From positions 1-54,780 of the IMG/VR virus record IMGVR_UViG_3300037307_000593: DNA of 54,780 bases. One strand, 5' to 3'. Each line of letters starts with the position of its first letter. The first letter of the stretch is position 1. The translations under genes were made by a program, and so were the position numbers. The stretch comes from a virus (Duplodnaviria > Caudoviricetes). Under the pieces are notes generated by a model, which was not told where the DNA came from, did not search any database, and worked only from the letters and a program-made list of their open reading frames with translations. Of this stretch, positions 27,284 to 50,990 are shown in pieces.

Positions 27284-28236
27284 GCGCGCCTCCAGCGATC
27301 ATCATCGTCGGCTAAGGCTTTCTCATACGCGGCAAGGGCTTCGTATTCCTCGGAGAGATAGATCGATCCTTCGCGCGGATCGACAAGCCACGCGGGATCC
27401 CAGAAGGCGTGAGCCTCGCGCGCCACGATCAAGGCCTCCGGATCAAGCGCAATCAAGGCACGTCTGAGGCGCATAAGGTGCCGTACGTCTAGGTACTCGC
27501 GAGCGGTATGCTGGCGTCCATAGCCCACTGAGAGGTTGGTACACTCCGCCACGTGATCGGCATATTCGGCGGAGTCCGTGTACACGCCGCCCCTGCACGG
27601 ACGATAGGAGAGACGCGGATCGATCCGCATGATCTCGCGTGCAAGGGACTCGGCGAATGTATCGGAGGCGGTACGCCTGCCGTACTGATGTGTGATCACA
27701 TCAGACGATCCCGCACGATCAAGAGCAATCACGATCCGCTGATGTGCCATCCAGGTTGTTTCCTCACATGCGAGGAATGACGATCCGATCCCGCCTCTCT
27801 CCTCTCCGGTGTGAAAGACAAAATGGCCGGTGACGCCTGCGAGGATCATCTCCCGCGCTAGCCACACGCCAGCGGTATCGTCGGCCCCCAAGCAAGATGA
27901 GTCTGACTCCAGCGGGAGATACAACGCGGAGAGACGCCGATCATAAAGTACCGATTGCCGACCCTCATCGTCATGCACGGTATCGGTATGTGTGCTCCAG
28001 ACGATCCCGCGCGTCGGTTCGCGGATCACGTGAATGTTGCCGATCCGATCCTCATACGCTCCGGAGAGAGAGAGGAGATAGCGATCGATAAACGCCCGCT
28101 CGGTTGCCGATCCATGCGGGCGTTTGTAGCCGTGCATTGTGATCAATGCGGAGAGGCGTCGGCCGATCCCGCGCGTCCTATGCTGCATTGTCGGCCTCGC
28201 AATCGTCGCTAGGCGTGCAATCCTCGCATCGGCCAT
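27280..28236 (-). CDS. M28/M20-like zinc peptidase
   Basis: Metal-ligand motifs HTDTVH, LGADDTAG, GEERG, ALDR, YTD, NLSVGY..QH...E. Confidence 0.8.
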   Translation of the reverse strand: MADARIARLATIARPTMQHRTRGIGRRLSALITMHGYKRPHGSATERAFIDRYLLSLSGAYEDRIGNIHVIREPTRGIVWSTHTDTVHDDEGRQSVLYDRRLSALYLPLESDSSCLGADDTAGVWLAREMILAGVTGHFVFHTGEERGGIGSSFLACEETTWMAHQRIVIALDRAGSSDVITHQYGRRTASDTFAESLAREIMRIDPRLSYRPCRGGVYTDSAEYADHVAECTNLSVGYGRQHTAREYLDVRHLMRLRRALIALDPEALIVAREAHAFWDPAWLVDPREGSIYLSEEYEALAAYEKALADDDDRWRRA

Positions 28237-29518
28237 CGGCGTCGCACGTATCCTCGTGTACTATCTCGCGGCAATCGGTACACCGATCATGGTGGCGCGC
28301 GCAATCGGGACAATATGCTGTCACGCCACGATCCCGCCGATCTCGTCGTGTCTCGCGCGAGAGAGAGGCCTCGATCCACTCCTCCTCACAATCGGGCGCG
28401 ACGCACGTTTGCCGCGCATTGTCGGCGCATGATTCGCAGAGGTAGCCGTTAGCTACTGACTCGGCGCCATCGAAAAAATCCTCTCCGCATTCACAACAGT
28501 TATACACATCGTCGGCGCATGACGGGCAATATTGCAAATGCCCATCATTCTCGTGATACCGATAGGAGCCGGCGCAACGCTCGCACGTGTAGATCTCCGC
28601 CTCCCATGCCGTGCCGTTTGTGATCCCGGTTTCCAGCTCTCCCTCTTCGCTGAGCACAAGATACTTGCCTTGCCGCTCAGCGAAGGTGGATCTCCCGTCG
28701 ATATACGGCATTAGGTAGCCGGTCCCATCAGGAATCGCGCGGATCCGCGCGCCCTCCAAATCTCCGCGCGTGTAGCCGTTCGCCTCCAAGAGTGTTTCGA
28801 TCAACGTCGTGTGGCCATACGTGCGGCTGTACGTCTGATTCGCTGGCCAGACAATCGCGCGGGCGGACGCGTGATCGGGATCGCCGGTGTACGCCAGTGC
28901 GAGATCCGGAGAGTTGCCATAGGCGCGCGTAGGATGTACGTGAGAAGTAAACACGCGGCATCTCCCGCCACGGCATGATGTGTGTCGGCATGTGCGATCC
29001 GCATCAAACGATCCCGCATGGCTCATACAGGATTGCGGGCCGCCGATATACACGCGTTCGATTGTGTCGGGATCGGTCGTGAAGTGTAGTTCCATCGCAG
29101 CGGCGCTACACTCTCCGGCATACCGCGTGATCTCGTCATGCGAGAACACATCGCCGAAAAACTCCGCGAGATAGCGGCCGACTTTCATGGTCGTTTGCCG
29201 ATCCGCGATCCCATGCTCGTCGTTTTTGGTATACGCGATCATGCCGGGCGTTTTCACCGACATATGTGCAAAATGTGTATACAGCTGGCCCCATGGGTGG
29301 CAATAGCGCGCGTGATCGTGCCACGGCACGCGCACATACTCGCCAGTAGCGAATCTAGAAGCCTCGCGATTGTGCCATGCGGTACGTTCCTCGTCGGAAC
29401 ACACAAACGTCACAATCTTGTCGGCATGTGCGGCGCGAGCCTCGTGTGCGTCGCGCGCCGTTTCAAACGATTCGCCAGATTCGGGCGCCGATTCCTTGTC
29501 GTGCAGCATGTACGGCAT
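28178..29518 (-). CDS. Hypothetical protein with multi-CxxC C-terminus
   Basis: 446 aa; QSCMS, SARAIVW..YSRTYG, MPYID, then roughly eight CxxC pairs; AGAGGAG RBS. Confidence 0.7.
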   Translation of the reverse strand: MPYMLHDKESAPESGESFETARDAHEARAAHADKIVTFVCSDEERTAWHNREASRFATGEYVRVPWHDHARYCHPWGQLYTHFAHMSVKTPGMIAYTKNDEHGIADRQTTMKVGRYLAEFFGDVFSHDEITRYAGECSAAAMELHFTTDPDTIERVYIGGPQSCMSHAGSFDADRTCRHTSCRGGRCRVFTSHVHPTRAYGNSPDLALAYTGDPDHASARAIVWPANQTYSRTYGHTTLIETLLEANGYTRGDLEGARIRAIPDGTGYLMPYIDGRSTFAERQGKYLVLSEEGELETGITNGTAWEAEIYTCERCAGSYRYHENDGHLQYCPSCADDVYNCCECGEDFFDGAESVANGYLCESCADNARQTCVAPDCEEEWIEASLSRETRRDRRDRGVTAYCPDCARHHDRCTDCREIVHEDTCDADGRCEDCTPSDDCEADNAA

Positions 29519-30109: not shown

Positions 30110-30214
30110 GCCTTTTCCCCCACGCCTGTGCGCGAGACCCCCCCTAGCGCCTAAATTTTTGCCCCAGCAACTGAGGCCTCCGCGCGAGGCCCCCCCTAGC
30201 GCCGAAATTTTTGC

Positions 30215-31086: not shown

Positions 31087-31138
31087 CGTCGCTCCCCTTT
31101 GCGTCTCAGGGCCGCTCGTCACGCGACCCAACGAACAC

Positions 31139-31167
31139 ATCATACCACTACTACGCGCAGGTGTCAA
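31139..31167 (-). promoter_or_regulatory. Sigma70-type promoter
   Basis: TTGACA-17 bp-TATGAT with TG extension; CGCGTAGTAG in the spacer. Confidence 0.8.
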
Positions 31168-31246
31168 GAGGAGACCCACGCAGAGATCCGCCGCCTCGCC
31201 TGCGTGGGCGCGAGGCTGACCCGAGGGACTGGCGCGGAGCGCGGCG

Positions 31247-32229: not shown

Positions 32230-32274
32230 CGTCGCTCCCTTCAGGGCCGCGCGTCACCGCGACCCAACGAAGGC

Positions 32275-32303
32275 ATCATAGCACTACTGCGCGCTGGTGT
32301 CAA
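32275..32303 (-). promoter_or_regulatory. Sigma70-type promoter
   Basis: TTGACA-17 bp-TATGAT; nearly identical to 32572-32600. Confidence 0.8.
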
Positions 32304-32307
32304 GCCT

Positions 32308-32520: not shown

Positions 32521-32571
32521 GTCGTCGCTCCTCGTGTCGCTGAGGCGCCCGTCTCGCGCCCCAACGAAGAC

Positions 32572-32600
32572 ATCATAGCACTACTTCGCGCTGGTGTCAA
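32572..32600 (-). promoter_or_regulatory. Sigma70-type promoter
   Basis: TTGACA-17 bp-TATGAT. Confidence 0.8.
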
Positions 32601-32612
32601 GCGGCGTGGGTA

Positions 32613-33125: not shown

Positions 33126-33243
33126 GCCCTATTGTGTGGCAGGGGGAGCGGCGCCCCTGCCTACCGGACGCGAGGCGAACTGGGCGAGGGCGGCCCCCGT
33201 CCCACCGCGAAAGATGGCCCCCCCCTAGCGCCTAAATTTTTGC

Positions 33244-33801
33244 CTAGAAACTGCGGCTCTTCGTCAGGCCCCACGAGGTGCGGCTGCGCGGCGCGACCCG
33301 CAGGCGCTGCTCTCGCGCCCACTGTCGGACCCCTGCCTCGACGGTCGGCCAAACGAAGTCATGGCCCGCGAGCAGGCCCCCCACCTTGACCTTCGGCCAC
33401 CACGCCTTGCACTCGCGGTACACGTGCGCCGCGGAGTGATCATCGTCGAGGAACACGAGGTCGAGGCTCTCGTCGGCATAGGTGGCGGCTGCCGCCAAGG
33501 CATCGCCCACACAGATCCGCACCGGCAGGCCCGCGAGCGTCGCCCGCACCTCGGCCTGATCGATGGGCGTCCAGTCCGGCTGCCCATGCCCTGGGTTGGT
33601 GCCGAGATAGTTGTCCCACGTGTCGAACTGGATCGCCTTGCCGCTCGCCTGTATCAACGTGCCCATGACGTAGGCGGAGCGCCCGTGGTACGTGCCGCAC
33701 TCAACGAAATACGCCCCCGTCTCCGGCGCGACGTCCACGCAGGCGGCATACAGGTCGTCGAAGTCGCAGAACCCCTCGATGTTCGCTAGCGTCGTCGCCA
33801 T
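33244..33801 (-). CDS. Class I SAM methyltransferase (Methyltransf_24-like)
   Basis: FVECGTYHGRSA, DTW, LDLVFLDDDH, KVKVGGLLAGHDF. Confidence 0.85.
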   Translation of the reverse strand: MATTLANIEGFCDFDDLYAACVDVAPETGAYFVECGTYHGRSAYVMGTLIQASGKAIQFDTWDNYLGTNPGHGQPDWTPIDQAEVRATLAGLPVRICVGDALAAAATYADESLDLVFLDDDHSAAHVYRECKAWWPKVKVGGLLAGHDFVWPTVEAGVRQWAREQRLRVAPRSRTSWGLTKSRSF

Positions 33802-34441: not shown

Positions 34442-34594
34442 CCCCCCCCCTTTGCCCCGCCCAACACGACCACCCCCCTCGCGCCTAAATTTTTGCTCAG
34501 CGGGAGCGGCCCGTGGTCAGATGGCGCCACCAGTCGAGCGCAGCGAGGATCCCCACCCAGAGGGCCATCAGGAGCAACCCCTCTTCGACCCACG

Positions 34595-38531: not shown

Positions 38532-39170
38532 TCATGCCCCGCGCCGCGTGCCGACCATGTTCAGCATCACGCCCTCGCCCAGAAACGACCCTGGTTGACA
38601 GAGATAGACATCGGACACTGCGCGGCCCTCGACCATGACCCTGCCCTGCCGCAGCAGCGTCGCCAACCGCACCGGCGCCTCATCGGCGAGCGGCGCCGTC
38701 CGTCCGGTCCCCGACTGCCAACATGACCGCGCCTCGTCGAACACGAGGTCCGGAAACAGGACGCGCACCGCTGAGGGTGAGAACCGCCAGTAGTCGGACG
38801 GGTAATCGTGCAGCACCCACGCGAACGGCACCGAGAGCACCAGTGTGCCCTTCGGCGCGAGCAGGGCCGTCATCGCCGCCGCGAGCGTCCACGGGGTCGG
38901 GACATGCTCCAGTGTCGAGAGGCACAAGAGCGTCTGCGCCTGCCCCCAGTAGGGCGCGAGCGCCGCGCCTCCGGTCCCAGTGGCGAGGTCGGCTATGACA
39001 TCCACGCCGCTCCCTGCCTCGATGTCGATCCCGACATAGGGTTGCGTCGGAAACAGGGCGCGGTAGTCGTAGAAGTCGGGATCGTCCGCAACCAGCCGGC
39101 TCCCCACCTCCACCACCGGCCCTGTCAGCCCGAGGCCCGCCACCCACTGCCGTTGGTAGACGTTCCCCAT
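38532..39170 (-). CDS. Class I SAM methyltransferase
   Basis: VVEVGSR, YVGIDIEAGSGVDVIADL, LSTLEHV, SVPF..HDYPSDYWRF. Confidence 0.85.
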   Translation of the reverse strand: MGNVYQRQWVAGLGLTGPVVEVGSRLVADDPDFYDYRALFPTQPYVGIDIEAGSGVDVIADLATGTGGAALAPYWGQAQTLLCLSTLEHVPTPWTLAAAMTALLAPKGTLVLSVPFAWVLHDYPSDYWRFSPSAVRVLFPDLVFDEARSCWQSGTGRTAPLADEAPVRLATLLRQGRVMVEGRAVSDVYLCQPGSFLGEGVMLNMVGTRRGA

Positions 39171-39958
39171 CAGGCGATCCGCAACAGGTAGCCTTCTGGG
39201 CAAAACGTGGTCAGATACCGCTCACAGTACCGCTCGACGCGGAACTCGGGATGACTGGGCAGCCACGCCTCCAAGGCCTCGCGCGGCCCACGCGCGTAGC
39301 GCGGATACTCGCTCGCGTCCACCGGCTCGCCGTTCTTGCTGCACCACCAGTCCTTCGTCAGGTTCAGCGGCACCTCGTGGTTCAGGTTCGTGTCCTCGAC
39401 GATGAGCCACTGCCCCACGCTGACCATCTGGGCGTACAACTCCAGTTCCCGCGCGACATGCTCGGCGCGGTGGTCGCTGTCCAAGATGACCATGACCCGC
39501 GCGGCCCGCGTCGCCATCTCGGCGATGGTGTCGAAGATGACCTGATGCGTCGAACTCCCGATCAGCCGGATCAGCCCAGGTTGCACGACGGCATCCGAAT
39601 ACTGCTTCGGCTCCAGTTCGACCGTGACGACGAGGCCGTCCGTCACGCCCGCCACGCGCTGCATGTCCCGCAGGAACAGCGCCGACCCGCCTTCGGCCGT
39701 GCCGGTTTCGATGATGAGGTCGGGCCGCATCTCCTGCACGATCTCGGCGTACATGAGCACGTCGCTCGGGGCCTTCATCATCGTCTTGCCCCGCCACACG
39801 GCCGTGCGCCACGTACACTTGGCGGCATAGAAGATGCGGTGGAAGGCCGTCAGCACCTCGCCGTGCTCGGCCCAGAGGCGCTCCAGCTCGGCGCGACAGG
39901 TGTCGCTCCAGTCCAGTCCGCCATCGACGACGGCCTTCTCGCTCGTGTGCTCGCTCAT
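39170..39958 (-). CDS. CmcI (cephalosporin hydroxylase) family O-methyltransferase
   Basis: K.P.D...Y.EI.....PDLIIETGTAEGGSALF, VMVILDSDH, WLIVEDT, GP.EA, P.GYL. Confidence 0.9.
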   Translation of the reverse strand: MSEHTSEKAVVDGGLDWSDTCRAELERLWAEHGEVLTAFHRIFYAAKCTWRTAVWRGKTMMKAPSDVLMYAEIVQEMRPDLIIETGTAEGGSALFLRDMQRVAGVTDGLVVTVELEPKQYSDAVVQPGLIRLIGSSTHQVIFDTIAEMATRAARVMVILDSDHRAEHVARELELYAQMVSVGQWLIVEDTNLNHEVPLNLTKDWWCSKNGEPVDASEYPRYARGPREALEAWLPSHPEFRVERYCERYLTTFCPEGYLLRIA

Positions 39959-41502: not shown

Positions 41503-42052
41503 GGGCTGTCCCCTTGTGGTCGCCGACAATGCGGGCTTTGCGTCCATCGAGGGTGAATCGTTCCACGAGCGCCTCAGCATCCGCCGCGTCAGTGGCCTGC
41601 ACCAGCACCCAGACGGGACGCACGCCGGTGCGTCCCTGCCGCACCTCACGCGCGAGGCGCTCATAGGTCCACGCCCCGCCCTCGGCATCGCCCGCCGCCG
41701 CCGTCGTCAGCAGCACCCGCTGCTCGGCTGGCGGCAATTGTGCCACGACTTTGTGATGGGAGAACGACAGATCCAAACGCCGATTCTCGACGGGCACCCG
41801 CTTGGCGACCCACGCATAGACCTCCAGCGTGCTCAGGGTCCAGCCGGTGGCATCGAGCGCCTGCGCGTACCGCTCCCCGTAGTGGGTCTCGCCAAAATTC
41901 AACCAGTCCCCCACCCACCACTGAATTGATCCGTCCACCGTCCGCAGCCATGCGCCGAGACTTTCCCACGTCTCAAAGGTGCAGTCCTGCGTCAGGCGCA
42001 GACAGGGCGGATGGGCGCAGAGCGCCTCACGAAGCATCAGGTCGTTCGACAC
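41495..42052 (-). CDS. LmbU-like DNA-binding protein
   Basis: WWVGDWLNFGE..YGERY.QA, RR.DLSFSHH..VA motifs. Confidence 0.7.
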   Translation of the reverse strand: MSNDLMLREALCAHPPCLRLTQDCTFETWESLGAWLRTVDGSIQWWVGDWLNFGETHYGERYAQALDATGWTLSTLEVYAWVAKRVPVENRRLDLSFSHHKVVAQLPPAEQRVLLTTAAAGDAEGGAWTYERLAREVRQGRTGVRPVWVLVQATDAADAEALVERFTLDGRKARIVGDHKGTAHA

Positions 42053-42411: not shown

Positions 42412-42915
42412 TCAGGGCGCAGGCGTGAGCACCCGCGCCACCGCATCGAGCTTCAGCGTCGCCATGGGCCAGAGGGCCGCGTGGGGCACGAAGTAACAGG
42501 GCGGCGCCTCCGCGCAATACCACTCCTCCTGCTTGGCGTCCCCTGCGAGGATCCATCCCATGAGCCGGTATTCCGGACAGCGCCCCGTGACCGAGACCAC
42601 CAGATGGGTGTCGTCATCGTCGTGCCGGATCTTCAGGTCGTCCCGTGGACTCCAGCGCACTTCCAGCGGCTGCCCCGCCACGTCGGCCGAGTGAAACGTA
42701 TTGATCCCTGCCCCCCAGTAGATCCCCAGATGCTGCGCCACACACATCTCCGCGAGCGCCGCCTCGATGTGCTGTCCCCAGAACTCGCCAGGGCGCCGCT
42801 CAGGGAACCGCGACGCTCGCTTGCGGAACAGCGCCTCCGCACTGCGATAGAACCCGACCTGCCCCCCGATGAGGGCATCCTTCCATGTCAACGTGATCAC
42901 GACGGGATCGGGCAT
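42412..42915 (-). CDS. PD-(D/E)XK-like hypothetical nuclease
   Basis: ALAEMCVAQHL, ADV....LEVR, MGWI, YFVP...L.P. Confidence 0.55.
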   Translation of the reverse strand: MPDPVVITLTWKDALIGGQVGFYRSAEALFRKRASRFPERRPGEFWGQHIEAALAEMCVAQHLGIYWGAGINTFHSADVAGQPLEVRWSPRDDLKIRHDDDDTHLVVSVTGRCPEYRLMGWILAGDAKQEEWYCAEAPPCYFVPHAALWPMATLKLDAVARVLTPAP

Positions 42916-43790
42916 ACACGCTCCTGATGGGGGATGGACGTGCGTGGGCCACGCACGCGAGGAAAGGTCCGCAGGACCATCCCATAGTTGTCCACACCGG
43001 TCGGCACCACCACGTCCTGACGTCGGCGCAGGCGGGTGGCGCGGAACGGGCGGTAGTCCACCGAGTGCTGCCACCGGCCGAACTTCCAGACGACCTTCAC
43101 AAGGTCGGGATGCTGGGCCGCGAGGGACTCGGCCATCGCCTTGCGGCCGTCGCCGGCGTAGAGCACGTCGGTGTTTCCGCCGCGCATCCGCATCGTCGTC
43201 ACCTTCCCCGCGAGGAAGGCATTGAACAGGACCGTGCAGTACCCCGCCTTGAGCACGCGCAGGCTCAGGTCGGTGTCCTCGTTGTAGCGCCCGCGCCACC
43301 GAAACGGCAGCGACGTGTCGAGCAGGATGCACGAGTAGACCCGTGTGTTCAGGTAGTACGGCGGCACCGGCTCGCTCGCCTTGGCGAAGCAGTAGTAGTT
43401 GAACCCCGCCAACGGCACGTTCTCGTAGCGGTCCACGAAGTCCTCGGCAGCGGCGAACATCGCCCCTGTCTCAACCTCGGGCTTGCAATTACGGTTGAGC
43501 CGATTGAACGCTTCGATGTTGTCGTCCAATACCCAGTGCCGCGCCGCGCCCAGCCGCTCGGCCTCGGCCCACGCCGCGTTGCGGGCCGGAATCGACCCCA
43601 GCCCTTGGTTCCCCTCGGGCAGGATCAGCAAGCGCTCGGCCCCGACCGCGGCGGCATAGGCCTCGGCCTCTTGCGGCTCCACAATCATGCGGTACGGCAC
43701 CCTCATGCGGTCCAAGGCCTTGCTGGTGAGCCGACTCTCCCAGCGCCCCTTCGACAGGACAAAGATCGGATACCTAGGTGTCTTCGCCAT
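42897..43790 (-). CDS. TET-associated / GREB1-like glycosyltransferase (TAGT family)
   Basis: YPIFVLSKGR, IVEPQE...Y, ARN..W, HWVLDDNI, VYSCILL, WRGRYNEDTDLSLRVLK.G, GGNT. Confidence 0.85.
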   Translation of the reverse strand: MAKTPRYPIFVLSKGRWESRLTSKALDRMRVPYRMIVEPQEAEAYAAAVGAERLLILPEGNQGLGSIPARNAAWAEAERLGAARHWVLDDNIEAFNRLNRNCKPEVETGAMFAAAEDFVDRYENVPLAGFNYYCFAKASEPVPPYYLNTRVYSCILLDTSLPFRWRGRYNEDTDLSLRVLKAGYCTVLFNAFLAGKVTTMRMRGGNTDVLYAGDGRKAMAESLAAQHPDLVKVVWKFGRWQHSVDYRPFRATRLRRRQDVVVPTGVDNYGMVLRTFPRVRGPRTSIPHQERVCPIPS

Positions 43791-48215: not shown

Positions 48216-48983
48216 TTACCGCCGCCCGTTAGCCGCCGTCTCGTCCGACTGGGCGGCTGCCGCCGTCGCCGCCGGTCGCCGTGCCTTGGCGGGCGCGGCT
48301 GCCCGCGACGGGCGCCGCGCGAAGATCGCGAGGATCTCGTCCGCCCCGTCCATCAGGTCCGTGACGGTCTTCTCCGGCGCCAACCCTGCCAAGACCCGCA
48401 ACACCTGTCCGTACTTCGCGGCCATCATGCTTGCCATCGGTGCCTCCTCCCGTCGCGCACCCAACAGGTGCGCGACTACTTCAGCCCAGCACAGGAGTGC
48501 GCCGGACTGTGTTTCCAGAGCATTGGCAGCCTCCACCGCGAGGGCCTGCCATGCCGTTGGCGTCGCGGCGTCAAAGGCCACGCCGTGCAACGCTGCGATG
48601 AGATCTCGTTCCACTGCCTTACCAAGACCTTGCCACACCGAGCCATGGACCACCGAGCCATGACCGCCTAATCGCAACCGCTTGATGGTGATGTAGCCCT
48701 GCTCGTCCCCTGGCACGCTTGGATCGCGGACATAGCAGACCGTGGACAACACGCGGTCCTCCACGGTCACTTGCACCTTCACGCTGCGGATCAAGTTGCG
48801 CGCCTGATCCACCCGATACGCGTGGCCCGCCTTGCTGTCGTCCCACTCGAAATACCCATGCAGTGGGTTTGTGGGCACTTCCGCCGCGTGAACGACGGCA
48901 TCGGGCGTGATCGTACCGGCCCGCGTCTCGACCTGCGCCAACGCTTCCGCGAGCGTGGCCCGTTCTGTCGCTGTGAACACCAT
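48216..48983 (-). CDS. Conserved phage protein (PLH..FEWDD family) reading through a repeat array; the last 73 aa (48216-48437) may be a separate gene
   Basis: N-terminal ITPDAVV.AA....NPLHGYFEWDDSKAG..YR..QAR.LIRSV...YVRDP...QGY; internal GGY-NN repeats, a 10-bp hairpin and GGAGGAGG-ATG at 48437. Confidence 0.6.
   Translation of the reverse strand: MVFTATERATLAEALAQVETRAGTITPDAVVHAAEVPTNPLHGYFEWDDSKAGHAYRVDQARNLIRSVKVQVTVEDRVLSTVCYVRDPSVPGDEQGYITIKRLRLGGHGSVVHGSVWQGLGKAVERDLIAALHGVAFDAATPTAWQALAVEAANALETQSGALLCWAEVVAHLLGARREEAPMASMMAAKYGQVLRVLAGLAPEKTVTDLMDGADEILAIFARRPSRAAAPAKARRPAATAAAAQSDETAANGRR
48452..48669 (-). repeat. Degenerate 5-nt GGY-NN repeat tract ending in a perfect hairpin
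   Basis: Minus strand GGC GGTC AT GGC TC GGT GGTCC AT GGC TC GGT GT GGC AA GGT CTT GGT AA GGC ... AC GGC GT GGC ... AC GGC AT GGC A GGC, then GTCGCGCACC-TGTTG-GGTGCGCGAC. Confidence 0.55.
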
Positions 48984-48986
48984 GCG

Positions 48987-49856
48987 TTACACCTCCATCT
49001 TCCTCGGGCGCCCACGCTTCTTCTTGGGCAACTCCTCCGCCGTCCCGTTGGCGGGCACGAAGACGCCCTCGTTCTGGTCGTCCTTCCGGCCTCGATCCTT
49101 GACCTCCGCGTCATACCACGCGAGGAGATCGAGCGTCTGCTGGTCCCACGGTTTCGGGTGCAGCAGCGCCGCGTCCTGTGCCTCGCGCCCCGCGTGCTGG
49201 ATCAGGTTCAGGAACACGGGGTTGTCCTCGTTCACCAGATCGAACTGCCCGTACGACCCCTTGCCCTTCTGCTGTCGCCAGTCGCCGATCCCGCGCAGAT
49301 CCCCAGCCGCCGCGAGCAGGTCGCCCATCGCCTTCTTGGTCAACCGAGGATAGGAGAACTCGATGTTCACGAAGCACGCCCACTGTCGGAGCTTGGCGCG
49401 CGTCCGCACGTCCGGCTTGGGCGGGAAGCCCTGCAGCTTCACGATGTCCATGCCGATCTCGGGAATCCCGTAGATCGACACGTAGTCGCCCGTGACGTAG
49501 GTGAGTCGCCCGATCTCCGTCTTCGCGGCCCCTGGCATGTCCAGCGCCACATCGCAGAGCGCCGCCTTGAACGCCGTCGCGGGGAACAGCAACCGCGTCG
49601 GCCCATCATCGTTGGGCATCGTGCGATAGACGCTCGCGCGGAACTCCTCCATCGGGAAGTGCTTCATCGTGGATTCCTTCTCCGCCTTGCTCTTCTTCTT
49701 CGGCGCAAGGAGATCCCGCTTGGCCTTCTCGCTCACCGCGTTATAAATGAGTGGCGTGCGCCCCAGAATGCACGCCATGAGGGTGCCCCGCTGCAACCGT
49801 ACGATTTGCAGGGGTTCGCCTATGAGGTCCTTCTCCACTTTGCCTCGTCCAGCCAT
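48987..49856 (-). CDS. Stand-alone Cas7/RAMP-like protein
   Basis: N-terminal strand ILGRTPLI, LLFPATAFKAAL helix, RTRA....W....IEF, and a C-terminal Gly-rich loop AGDLRGIGDWRQQKGKGSYGQF; start chosen at the AGCGACGACGATG motif. Confidence 0.65.
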   Translation of the reverse strand: MAGRGKVEKDLIGEPLQIVRLQRGTLMACILGRTPLIYNAVSEKAKRDLLAPKKKSKAEKESTMKHFPMEEFRASVYRTMPNDDGPTRLLFPATAFKAALCDVALDMPGAAKTEIGRLTYVTGDYVSIYGIPEIGMDIVKLQGFPPKPDVRTRAKLRQWACFVNIEFSYPRLTKKAMGDLLAAAGDLRGIGDWRQQKGKGSYGQFDLVNEDNPVFLNLIQHAGREAQDAALLHPKPWDQQTLDLLAWYDAEVKDRGRKDDQNEGVFVPANGTAEELPKKKRGRPRKMEV

Positions 49857-49886
49857 CGTCGTCGCTACCTTCATTCCTTATCGTGA

Positions 49887-50096
49887 GTGGGCGTTATTGC
49901 CCACGTCGATAAGCCTTACCGTGACCGCCAAACCCTGTCCCATCCTGCCGAATCCTGTCGAAACGTTGCGCGCCCTATCATCCGAGTCGTAACGGATCGA
50001 ACCGAACCGCCCTTGCTGCGTCCTGCCGCATCCGCCGCGTCAGTGGCCTGCACCAAAACCAACCTTGACGGACCTTGACGTACACCGCCAAAACCG
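49887..50096 (-). ncRNA. Candidate guide-like RNA: 5-nt periodic G(G/A/T)Y-NN array plus terminal hairpin
   Basis: Intergenic. Minus strand ...GTC AA GGT CC GTC AA GGT TG GTT TT GGT GCAGGC ... GGT TC GGT TC GAT CC GTT AC GAC TC ... GTT TC GAC AG GAT TC GGC AG GAT GG GAC AG GGT TT GGC GGTCAC GGT AA GGC TT, then GTGGGC-AATAAC-GCCCAC. Confidence 0.65.
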
Positions 50097-50103
50097 TGTG
50101 CTG

Positions 50104-50922
50104 CTACTCCTCCTCTCGGTCGCCGTACTCCGATGCCCGTCGCTGGGCCGTCGCTGAGACGGGCTGCGCCGACGCCTTCCCAGCCTGCGAGTGCACCCAT
50201 GCCAGCGTCTGATCGAACGCGCTCATCGTGATGTCTTCGATCTTCGGCACCAGTTCGTACTGCTCGGCGTACCACTTCAGCAGCCGCTCGCTGCCGACCT
50301 TGGCCTTGCTCATCTCGACGAGCAAATACTTCGCTTGCGCTTGGCTGATCGGACGCGAGGCGACCTTCGGCGTCGGCGTCGTCTGCGTGTGCTCGGCAAG
50401 GCCCTGCGGCGCACTCGCGTCGTCGTCCTGCTCGCTGGCGATGGACACCATGCCCTGCACGGCATACCGTCGCAAATAGGTGATCAGGCCACCGAGGGTC
50501 TGGACCTTAGCGTCCGGCAACCGCGCGGCGAGGGCATTGCTCATCCACTGCCCCGAGGCGTGCATCAGGACGGTCTCGATCTCCAGCCACGCGCCGTCCT
50601 CGTTGTAGATCGTCTTGGGGTGCTGGACCAGCACAAGCCCCTGCTTGGCCAGCGGCTTGCGAATGGCGTCGAGGACCGTCGCCAGATCGCTGTAGGCGTA
50701 GCTGTAGTTGCCCTTCTCGGACCGCACCTGCGCCGTCCGGTCCTTGACGGGGTTCTCGATCTCCAGCAGCGCCTTGGCGAGTGCGGTGGTCAGGTGCATC
50801 AGGTCTGCTGAATGCGCCCACCGCCCCTCGACCACCACCGGCGTGCTCGTCTCGGCGGCCGAGGTCGGCGCATCGAGGTAGTCCACGAATTGCTGGGCCT
50901 GTTCTTGCTCGTTCATGCTCAT
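50104..50922 (-). CDS. erf: ERF-family single-strand annealing protein
   Basis: Y.YSDL, ETVLMHASGQWM, GGLITYLRRYA, DDDA. Confidence 0.88.
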   Translation of the reverse strand: MSMNEQEQAQQFVDYLDAPTSAAETSTPVVVEGRWAHSADLMHLTTALAKALLEIENPVKDRTAQVRSEKGNYSYAYSDLATVLDAIRKPLAKQGLVLVQHPKTIYNEDGAWLEIETVLMHASGQWMSNALAARLPDAKVQTLGGLITYLRRYAVQGMVSIASEQDDDASAPQGLAEHTQTTPTPKVASRPISQAQAKYLLVEMSKAKVGSERLLKWYAEQYELVPKIEDITMSAFDQTLAWVHSQAGKASAQPVSATAQRRASEYGDREEE

Positions 50923-50990
50923 GCTTCCTCTCACCCCCACGGCCTCGTGCGCGTAGGGGAAACCCGTGCTACAGTAGGTGGTGACAACAG

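Follow-up and report, generated by a model that had tools for sequence, protein, structure and literature searches.

The whole virus record IMGVR_UViG_3300037307_000593 of IMG/VR (54,780 bases with a GC content of about 66%, called the window here) contains a spacer with runs of pentanucleotide units directly upstream of a Cas7-like gene, and this tract is probably the guide-RNA (vrRNA) array of a phage-borne VIPR system. The genes around it were all found on the minus strand, in the order erf, spacer, an open reading frame (ORF) of 295 amino acids (aa) and an ORF of 255 aa, with an exonuclease gene and DnaB further on. The VIPR-like locus has a viral location: the record is that of a whole virus, and genes for phage replication and recombination are present in it (Pfam, PHROG). 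The gap between the stop codon of erf (50104) and the next gene, named vipr here, measures 229 nt if vipr starts at the ATG at 49874 and 247 nt if it starts at 49856; the original prediction, made from the letters and ORFs of the window, had put this gap too short, at about 185 nt. The ATG at 49856 is the start used for vipr in the protein database, and the ATG at 49874 gives a longer alternative. The 255-aa ORF after it is the vap-like accessory gene, with no intergenic space behind it, and no other array was found in the record, so the upstream tract is the only non-coding source of guides. The coordinates of all features are collected in Table 1.

Table 1. Features of the VIPR-like locus in the window; a slash within a unit marks a step out of the pentamer phase.
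Feature	Coordinates	Strand	Remarks
erf (single-stranded DNA-annealing protein)	50104..50940	-	Pfam ERF 1.9e-22; PHROG Erf-like; upstream neighbour
Array segment A	50050..50094	-	9 pentamers; chain score 6.5
Exact same-strand copy (28 nt) of 41577-41604	50028..50055	-	extends to 33 nt at 94%
Unphased stretch (41 nt)	50009..50049	-	between the two arrays; in neither chain
Array segment B	49984..50008	-	5 pentamers, then 4-nt slip unit GGAT (49983..49980)
Central candidate vrRNA guide	49925..49979	-	11 units; 4-nt slips on both sides
Three in-phase units past the slip	49911..49925	-	GTCAC GGTAA GGCTT; run into the hairpin
Terminal hairpin	49877..49913	-	CUUAUCG-AC-GUGGGC-AAUAAC-GCCCAC-UCA-CGAUAAG
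vipr (Cas7-like RAMP gene)	48987..49874	-	295 aa from ATG 49874; 289 aa from ATG 49856
vap-like accessory gene	48216..48983	-	255 aa; PHROG 15946; relatives about 150-170 aa
Strict GGY-NN-like stretch inside vap	48625..48690	-	about 11 units; starts GGCG/GTCAT

The pentamers quoted in the original prediction were all identified on the minus strand, with GTCAA GGTCC GTCAA GGTTG GTTTT at 50079..50055, GGTTC GGTTC GATCC GTTAC GACTC at 50008..49984, and the run from GATAG to GGTTT at 49979..49930. The runs into which the spacer had been parsed were thus present, although they do not form one continuous tract, with the 41 nt at 50049..50009 lacking pentamer phase. The main part is a chain of 20 units, in which position 1 was G in 20/20 units and position 3 a pyrimidine in 18/20 (T 10, C 8, A 2), in agreement with the claim that the first letter is G and the third almost always C or T. 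Position 2 was G in nine units, A in seven, T in three and C in one, and positions 4 and 5 were mixed. Two 4-nt steps, GGAT/GATAG and GGCG/GTCAC, cut this chain, and between them lies the central segment GATAG GGCGC GCAAC GTTTC GACAG GATTC GGCAG GATGG GACAG GGTTT, which has ten full units and is followed by GGCG(G). Segment A, on the erf side, reads GTTTT GGCGG TGTAC GTCAA GGTCC GTCAA GGTTG GTTTT GGTGC, with G at position 1 in 8/9 units, and a period-10 repeat was called within it by TRF (50062-50080).

The autocorrelation at period 5, for which a comparison with shuffled sequence had been proposed, gave a divided result, being weak at lag 5 itself (0.304 vs 0.264 +/- 0.029 in shuffles, z 1.36, p 0.098) and strong at lag 10 (z 4.18, reached by 0/5000 dinucleotide shuffles). 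Averaged over lags 5, 10 and 15, z was 4.1 (0/5000 shuffles), the best lag over the range 2-30 had a p of 0.0016, and the lag-10 value at the tract was the highest among all 200-nt windows of the record. The excess at lag 10 arises because neighbouring two-unit blocks resemble each other, as in GTCAAGGTCC/GTCAAGGTTG and GACAGGATTC/GGCAGGATGG, where TRF calls period-10 repeats.

A phase-aware test was then applied, in which G.Y pentamers (G at position 1, C or T at position 3) were chained and slips of 4 or 6 nt were penalised. The best chain was the one of 20 units at 50008..49911 on the minus strand, with a score of 11, which was reached by 0/5000 shuffles (2.7 +/- 0.7, maximum 7.0), and the maximum in 2152 other windows, both strands included, was 6.5. 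A second chain, the nine units of segment A, was present in the first 95 nt, and its score was matched by 1/5000 shuffles; the opposite strand scored 3.0 in the same 95-nt test. When G.Y units were counted in windows of 12 units over the whole record, values of 9 or 10 occurred only at 49964-49989 (minus strand). The pentamer phasing is therefore real, far beyond chance and the strongest in the record.

One reading frame is open through most of the spacer (49916..50275, 119 aa), and a small protein-coding gene, translated from this frame or from a shorter start within it, could in principle explain the locus. The GC content at codon positions 1/2/3 of this frame after the erf stop was 0.65/0.65/0.52, against 0.78-0.89 at the third position in the six genes measured; over the region it was flat in all three frames (0.54-0.64), with third-position values of 0.52-0.63 across the frames. 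No family was found for the 119-aa ORF in Pfam or PHROGs, and a period of 5 or 10 is not a codon effect, a point on which the original prediction was upheld. A translated gene is almost certainly not the explanation, and the region is taken as non-coding, as had been supposed.

For comparison, 80 related viral loci with a Vipr homologue were collected. Strict GGY arrays were present in 63/80 of them on the strand of the gene and in 0/80 on the other strand. With the relaxed chain, 72/80 loci had at least 15 units, a count which may include some coding false positives, and the arrays were downstream in 69 loci and upstream in 11. In the upstream regions of several loci the runs of (GGC/T-NN)n were perfect, with lag-5 z values up to 7.5. 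The statistics of 6692 units in 93 arrays gave G in 94% at position 1, G in 73%, A in 12% and T in 11% at position 2, and C in 68% and T in 25% at position 3, with positions 4 and 5 near even. The frequency of G at position 2 ranged from 0.45 to 1.0 per locus (median 0.725), so the tract of this phage (9/20, 45%) stands at the low end. Slips were also common in the relatives, 587 of them of 4 nt and 62 of 6 nt, typically GGCA/GGC or GGCG/GTC, and the commonest lengths between slips were 10-12 units.

These loci also bear on a second explanation, that the tract is a DNA-level element, i.e. 10-bp phased protein-binding sites (operator, iterons or origin) read as double-stranded DNA. Lag 10, about one helical turn, gave the strongest signal while lag 5 alone was weak, two short period-10 tandem repeats were called, and the tract sits in a replication/recombination module near erf, the exonuclease gene and DnaB. 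Yet the signal is strand-specific, here as well as in the relatives, where clean period 5 also occurs, and it is the Cas7-like gene that the arrays accompany rather than erf, whose homologue was near the Vipr homologue in just 3/80 loci. The excess at lag 10 is moreover accounted for by the duplicated two-unit blocks. A DNA-level element is considered very improbable, and erf is context only, outside the proposed system.

The structure predicted for Vipr by AlphaFold (predicted local distance difference test, pLDDT, 82.9; predicted template modelling score, pTM, 0.77) was compared with the PDB by Foldseek, which gave 69 matches at E <= 0.001, the best at E 4.7e-6. The matches listed were chains of the Cas7 family from type III and type VII complexes (type VII Cas7, Csm3 and Cmr4), with target-normalised TM values of 0.25-0.54. 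The adjoining gene, which had been called Cas7-like, would thus encode a protein with a predicted Cas7/Csm3-like fold, and its homologues are flanked by same-strand GGY-NN arrays in the 63 loci mentioned. No Pfam family was found for the 295-aa Vipr. Its database relatives numbered 979; single-protein scans of viral_contigs and metagenome_contigs gave no close relatives, and tblastn found only 5 Gordonia phage records with 28-31% identity. The gene is intact, and all invariant columns of the family are kept.

The C-terminus of Vipr (48987-49060, minus strand) carries a basic tail of about 40 aa ending in KKKRGRPRK, which we take to resemble an AT-hook. Similar basic tails were observed in 2/29 other aligned Vipr homologues (P0100 and P0112). 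In addition, Vipr homologues with 36-49% identity were present in genomes and metagenome-assembled genomes of many labels in genome_contigs (L105-L122), including Betaproteobacteria, Phycisphaerae, Binatia, Anaerolineae, Paraburkholderia adhaesiva, Nocardioides, Planctomycetaceae, Flavobacteriaceae and others, and the Vipr clade is spread over many phyla.

VIPR was described in 2026 as a CRISPR-like viral DNA silencer, composed of a phage-borne minimal RAMP (Vipr), an accessory vap gene and vrRNAs (bioRxiv 10.64898/2026.04.26.720920). The class is recognised by a RAMP with an RRM core, a G-loop and a thumb, and by tandem GGY/NN repeats of at least 4 units beside vipr on its strand. According to the same preprint, a vrRNA has 9-16 YNNGG repeats and, behind them, an invariable structured tail; Escherichia phage SUSP1 has one vrRNA upstream and three downstream; internal degeneracy is frequent, with the alternative repeat forms NNNGG, YNNNG and NNNNG; and in "staggered" arrays consecutive vrRNAs share 1 nt where one ends and the other begins. 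Systems with a single vrRNA also exist. The NN pairs bind DNA with every third base skipped, the skipped target bases are usually on the wobble position, and the silencing by SUSP1 was abolished when the GGY motifs were perturbed. The VIPR preprints list 664/667 loci. A second preprint (bioRxiv 10.64898/2026.04.26.720927) reports one Vipr protomer per repeat, in which G1 is contacted by H17 and D177, G2 by R138 and W178, and Y3 by E71, M72, R179 and others, and a third preprint on VIPR is 10.64898/2026.10.15.759431.

When the profile of the present family was searched against SUSP1, one ORF was hit (E 9.9e-7), and this was the annotated 195-aa coding sequence 28474-29061. GGY runs lie beside it on its own strand at 29164-29236 and 27618-27966, which corresponds to the layout described in bioRxiv 10.64898/2026.04.26.720920. 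The alignment of the two Vipr proteins by hhalign had a probability of 93.4% (E 2.6e-7) over 51 columns, with TRA...GIGDWR of the phage protein opposite Y137-R138...G176-D177-W178-R179 of SUSP1. R138, D177, W178 and R179 of SUSP1 are identical residues in the phage Vipr, and H17, E71 and M72 fall outside the aligned part.

The profile match, the GGY flanks in SUSP1 and the contact residues aligned by hhalign indicate that the locus is a VIPR system and the tract its vrRNA array, a further case of a published class, which we regard as probable. Beside vipr and on its strand there are 20 + 9 in-phase units of the GGY/NN type in relaxed form. The original prediction of an array of G-N-Y plus NN pentamers tied to a Cas7-like gene therefore agrees with an architecture already published in 2026 as VIPR and vrRNA, the gapped read-out included.

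The locus resembles the type II VIPR systems of SUSP1 and of the Pseudomonas fulva prophage: two genes are borne by a phage, and one of them encodes a Cas7-like RAMP that stands alone. This is a likeness and not an assignment to one of the types I-VII. Pentamers with fixed G..Y and variable NN on the strand of the gene, an array ahead of vipr and the equivalents of R138/D177/W178/R179 are further shared, and a candidate structured element closes the array on its 3' side. In contrast to SUSP1, the phage Vipr has about 290 aa instead of 195 aa, with homology detectable over about 50 residues; no similarity was found between the accessory protein and its counterpart beside the SUSP1 gene (E 20); there is no array downstream of vap; and position 2 of the repeat is relaxed. 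In addition, 1-nt slips punctuate the units here, whereas RNAs of about 100 nt, each with a pseudoknot tail, are found there. The contiguous pentamers are like those of the staggered vrRNA arrays in bioRxiv 10.64898/2026.04.26.720920, where the 1-nt overlap equals the 4-nt steps seen here and 587 times in the relatives. The form G-N-Y-N-N, with position 2 free, is however not among the three alternative forms given in the passages of that preprint drawn on here.

By analogy with SUSP1, the following mode of action may be proposed. The tract would be transcribed on the minus strand, with vipr or just ahead of it. One Vipr protomer would bind each 5-nt unit, holding G1, position 2 and Y3 and presenting the two variable bases. 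The string of NN pairs would then pair with double-stranded DNA, every third target base being skipped, and this pairing would silence transcription of a competing mobile element. The 4-nt slips GGAT/GATAG and GGCG/GTCAC could be the boundaries between staggered vrRNAs, so that the central guide would be the 11 units at 49979..49925. It had been suggested that phase slips split the tract into separate guides, and judged from sequence comparison this may well hold, since slips of 4 nt are the usual punctuation in the relatives (587/649 slips). The 11 units of the central segment are among the commonest between-slip lengths there, and its GGCG/GTC slip type recurs.

The spacer, with its repeat part, is not more stably folded than its shuffles (z -0.23), as expected for a guide tract. 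The terminal hairpin, with 7 bp, an internal loop and 6 bp, has a folding energy of -19.4 kcal/mol (z -3.67), 0/200 shuffles fold as well, and its pairing recurs in the fold of the whole spacer. The stem-loop GTGGGC-AATAAC-GCCCAC that had been proposed to close the tract does so at 49904..49887, and its stem is longer than noted, extending over 49913..49877. The last vrRNA would be capped at its 3' end by this hairpin, a candidate tail. In the 11 relatives with upstream arrays, hairpins with z <= -2.2 were found in 4, and 2 more had hairpins of the L077 type.

This type refers to the locus L077, where, as in L082, L063 and L064, a double hairpin common to these loci terminates the upstream array, some 60-100 nt ahead of the Vipr homologue. 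The double hairpin consists of GGTCAGGG-N4-CCCTGACC and then GATGCG-N5-CGCATC, is kept between loci with differing arrays, and is a candidate for the conserved vrRNA tail of that sub-clade. In another relative (L040:2214-2497), two successive short GGY-NN runs upstream of the Vipr homologue are each followed by the hairpin GTAGCGGGTAGGCACTTCTCAAGAGGTGCCCTCCC; this is plainly the repeat-plus-tail design of a vrRNA, whereas most relatives have staggered arrays.

A gapped target search, as the original prediction had recommended, was run with the pattern NN-x-NN from the 10 full central units, i.e. 20 specified bases. One exact match (20/20) was obtained in viral_contigs, although it is compatible with chance; with the 11th unit the match was 21/22. 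The matched record is a complete virus of 36,092 bases with 60% GC, unrelated to the present phage (no blastn match; best tblastx 56 aa). The 29-bp site (29329-29357 of that record) lies within a 92-aa ORF with CxxC motifs, in a same-strand run of early genes coding for an excisionase-like protein, a winged helix-turn-helix protein, a RecE-like domain, a regulator and RecT. For two control patterns matched in composition, 0 and 0 matches were returned. Markov models fitted to about 1 Mb of related DNA put the probability at 1.3e-12 to 2.2e-12 per position; by chance about 0.1-0.4 matches would be expected for 5e10-2e11 searched positions and about 0.06-0.5 for 5e10-4e11, the size of the collection being assumed. 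The site in the 36-kb phage is hence put forward, from sequence matching, as a candidate target and not as a finding. Self-targeting was not indicated, with 0 matches of the central guide and segment A in the 54,780-nt record at <=3 mismatches.

Several observations weigh against the reading as a vrRNA array. Position 2 is G in only 45% of the units though Vipr keeps the equivalents of R138 and W178, the residues holding G2 in SUSP1. The array is short, and it is interrupted by 41 unphased nt that hold a copy of sequence from another gene. Non-consensus bases are shared between neighbouring 10-mers, which suggests recent tandem duplication and not target-driven sequence. The candidate target is a single match compatible with chance, and its skipped bases fall at codon position 1 of the operon-strand ORF, while the preprint reports the wobble position as usual; they would reach that position only with an antisense ORF that is itself doubtful. 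No convincing match to segments A and B or to the vap insert was found in the candidate target phage, where one 3-mismatch site was found for segment A, none for the vap insert, and 7 one-mismatch sites for segment B vs 4 for the backwards control. Finally, the closest of the 979 Vipr relatives is only 57% identical, too far for a comparison in which NN varies and G.Y stays fixed.

The 28-nt copy in Table 1 lies between the two pentamer runs, where it takes in sequence of the unphased stretch and of the final pentamer of segment A. The other copy encodes LVQATDAADA near the C-terminus of a 215-aa ORF without Pfam family, and the repeat does not follow the gapped VIPR code.

A further observation was made in vap, whose homologue follows the Vipr homologue in 75/80 loci, and for which no Pfam family and no PDB fold match at E <= 0.001 were found. 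The stretch at 48625..48690 has the highest strict-GGY count in the record (7/12), is the second-best chain region (score 6.5), contains a 14/15-nt tandem duplication and begins with the same GGCG/GTC slip as in the spacer. It forms an in-frame insertion of about 35 aa, found only in this phage and absent from 25 aligned homologues, and the insert is predicted to be disordered, with pLDDT <50 at residues 103-123 and 133-140 of the model. It could be a captured array fragment, or a guide embedded in coding sequence.

These features may also be read as signs of decay, in which the tract would be the descendant of an array without working guides, eroding by changes at position 2, tandem duplications and foreign insertion. 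Such a relic would explain why G stands at position 2 in 9/20 units against a family mean of 73%, the break by unphased sequence with its gene copy, the lack of an array downstream of vap where 69/80 relatives have one, the array-like piece now inside the vap reading frame, and a candidate target that comes from one segment only and is compatible with chance. On the other hand, vipr is intact with its invariant columns and the SUSP1 RNA-contact residues, the central segment has a common family length and canonical slip boundaries, and free decay would not preserve both G1 in 20/20 and Y3 in 18/20 units. Relatives with equally low G at position 2 also exist (per-locus minimum 0.45). A decaying relic is thus considered unlikely, though it is the rival to which we give most weight.

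The block duplication, the 28-nt gene piece, the capture in vap and the G-N-Y code could jointly mean that vrRNA arrays are being remodelled, which we hold to be a rather remote reading. Guides would then grow by tandem duplication of two- or three-unit blocks (10 and 15 nt), and Vipr would accept all four bases at repeat position 2, giving the G-N-Y code. If true, the locus would give a clue to the origin and alteration of VIPR guides in the absence of Cas1-Cas2.

The backbones of Class 1 CRISPR systems (Cas7, Csm3, Cmr4) are the closest solved folds and are also similar in placing a protomer on each short RNA step with a base-flipping thumb (10.64898/2026.04.26.720927), but the step in VIPR is 5 nt and not 6, and its read-out is gapped. 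A CRISPR-Cas system of type I or III was rejected, for no 24-48-nt repeats with spacers were found by TRF and repeat scans, and no cas family was found by Pfam in 21 neighbouring ORFs. TRAP binds (G/U)AG-NN repeats in the trp leader, where a fixed triplet and a two-base spacer, in about 11 repeats, are read by an oligomer. A TRAP-like RNA sponge was an early analogy and was dropped, the fold here being Cas7 and not the TRAP ring, and the variable bases of VIPR carry information. Two-layer G-quadruplexes and a replication origin were likewise early ideas that were dropped.

Other searches of the region gave the following results. A scan for sigma-70-type promoters found 0 sites, an uninformative negative here. 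No RNA run containing the sequence was found among sequencing runs. No Rfam family was found, the best matches (E 1.2 and 6.3) being both outside the tract, and blastn of the locus against 50,697 phage records gave no match. Among the contigs of four DNA runs, one of 194 nt (X3, 49870-50063) covers the tract and is identical to the record, and those from the remaining runs cover only parts of erf and vipr.

Elsewhere in the window, a TET-associated glycosyltransferase (PF20691, 3.6e-46), a CmcI-type methyltransferase and another methyltransferase-like ORF were identified at 42897-43790, 39170-39958 and 38532-39203, all on the minus strand. The phage probably hypermodifies its own DNA, and any DNA-targeting system directed against the phage could be affected. 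In addition, two families of dispersed direct repeats of 39-48 nt, CCCCCCTAGCGCCTAAATTTTTGC and CGCGACCCAACGAAG...GGTGTCAAG, occur in intergenic positions at 30124-30214, 33205-33267 and 34458-34520, and also at 31122-31169, 32258-32305 and 32555-32602; they look like repeated regulatory signals of the phage.

The kind of system is not new, having been described in 2026 as VIPR, but it is a very recent class, known from three preprints of that year, of which few systems have been studied at the bench. To these the present copy adds an uncultured phage of 66% GC, with its sole non-coding array upstream of vipr. The middle base of the triplet is relaxed here though the contacts to G2 are kept, so that the locus lends itself to a natural test of the strictness of the GGY rule. 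A testable candidate pair is a further yield, with 49979..49925 as the guide and a small early gene in the unrelated 36-kb phage as the target, and the gene fragment inside the array, together with the array-like sequence inside vap, bears on the origin of guides.

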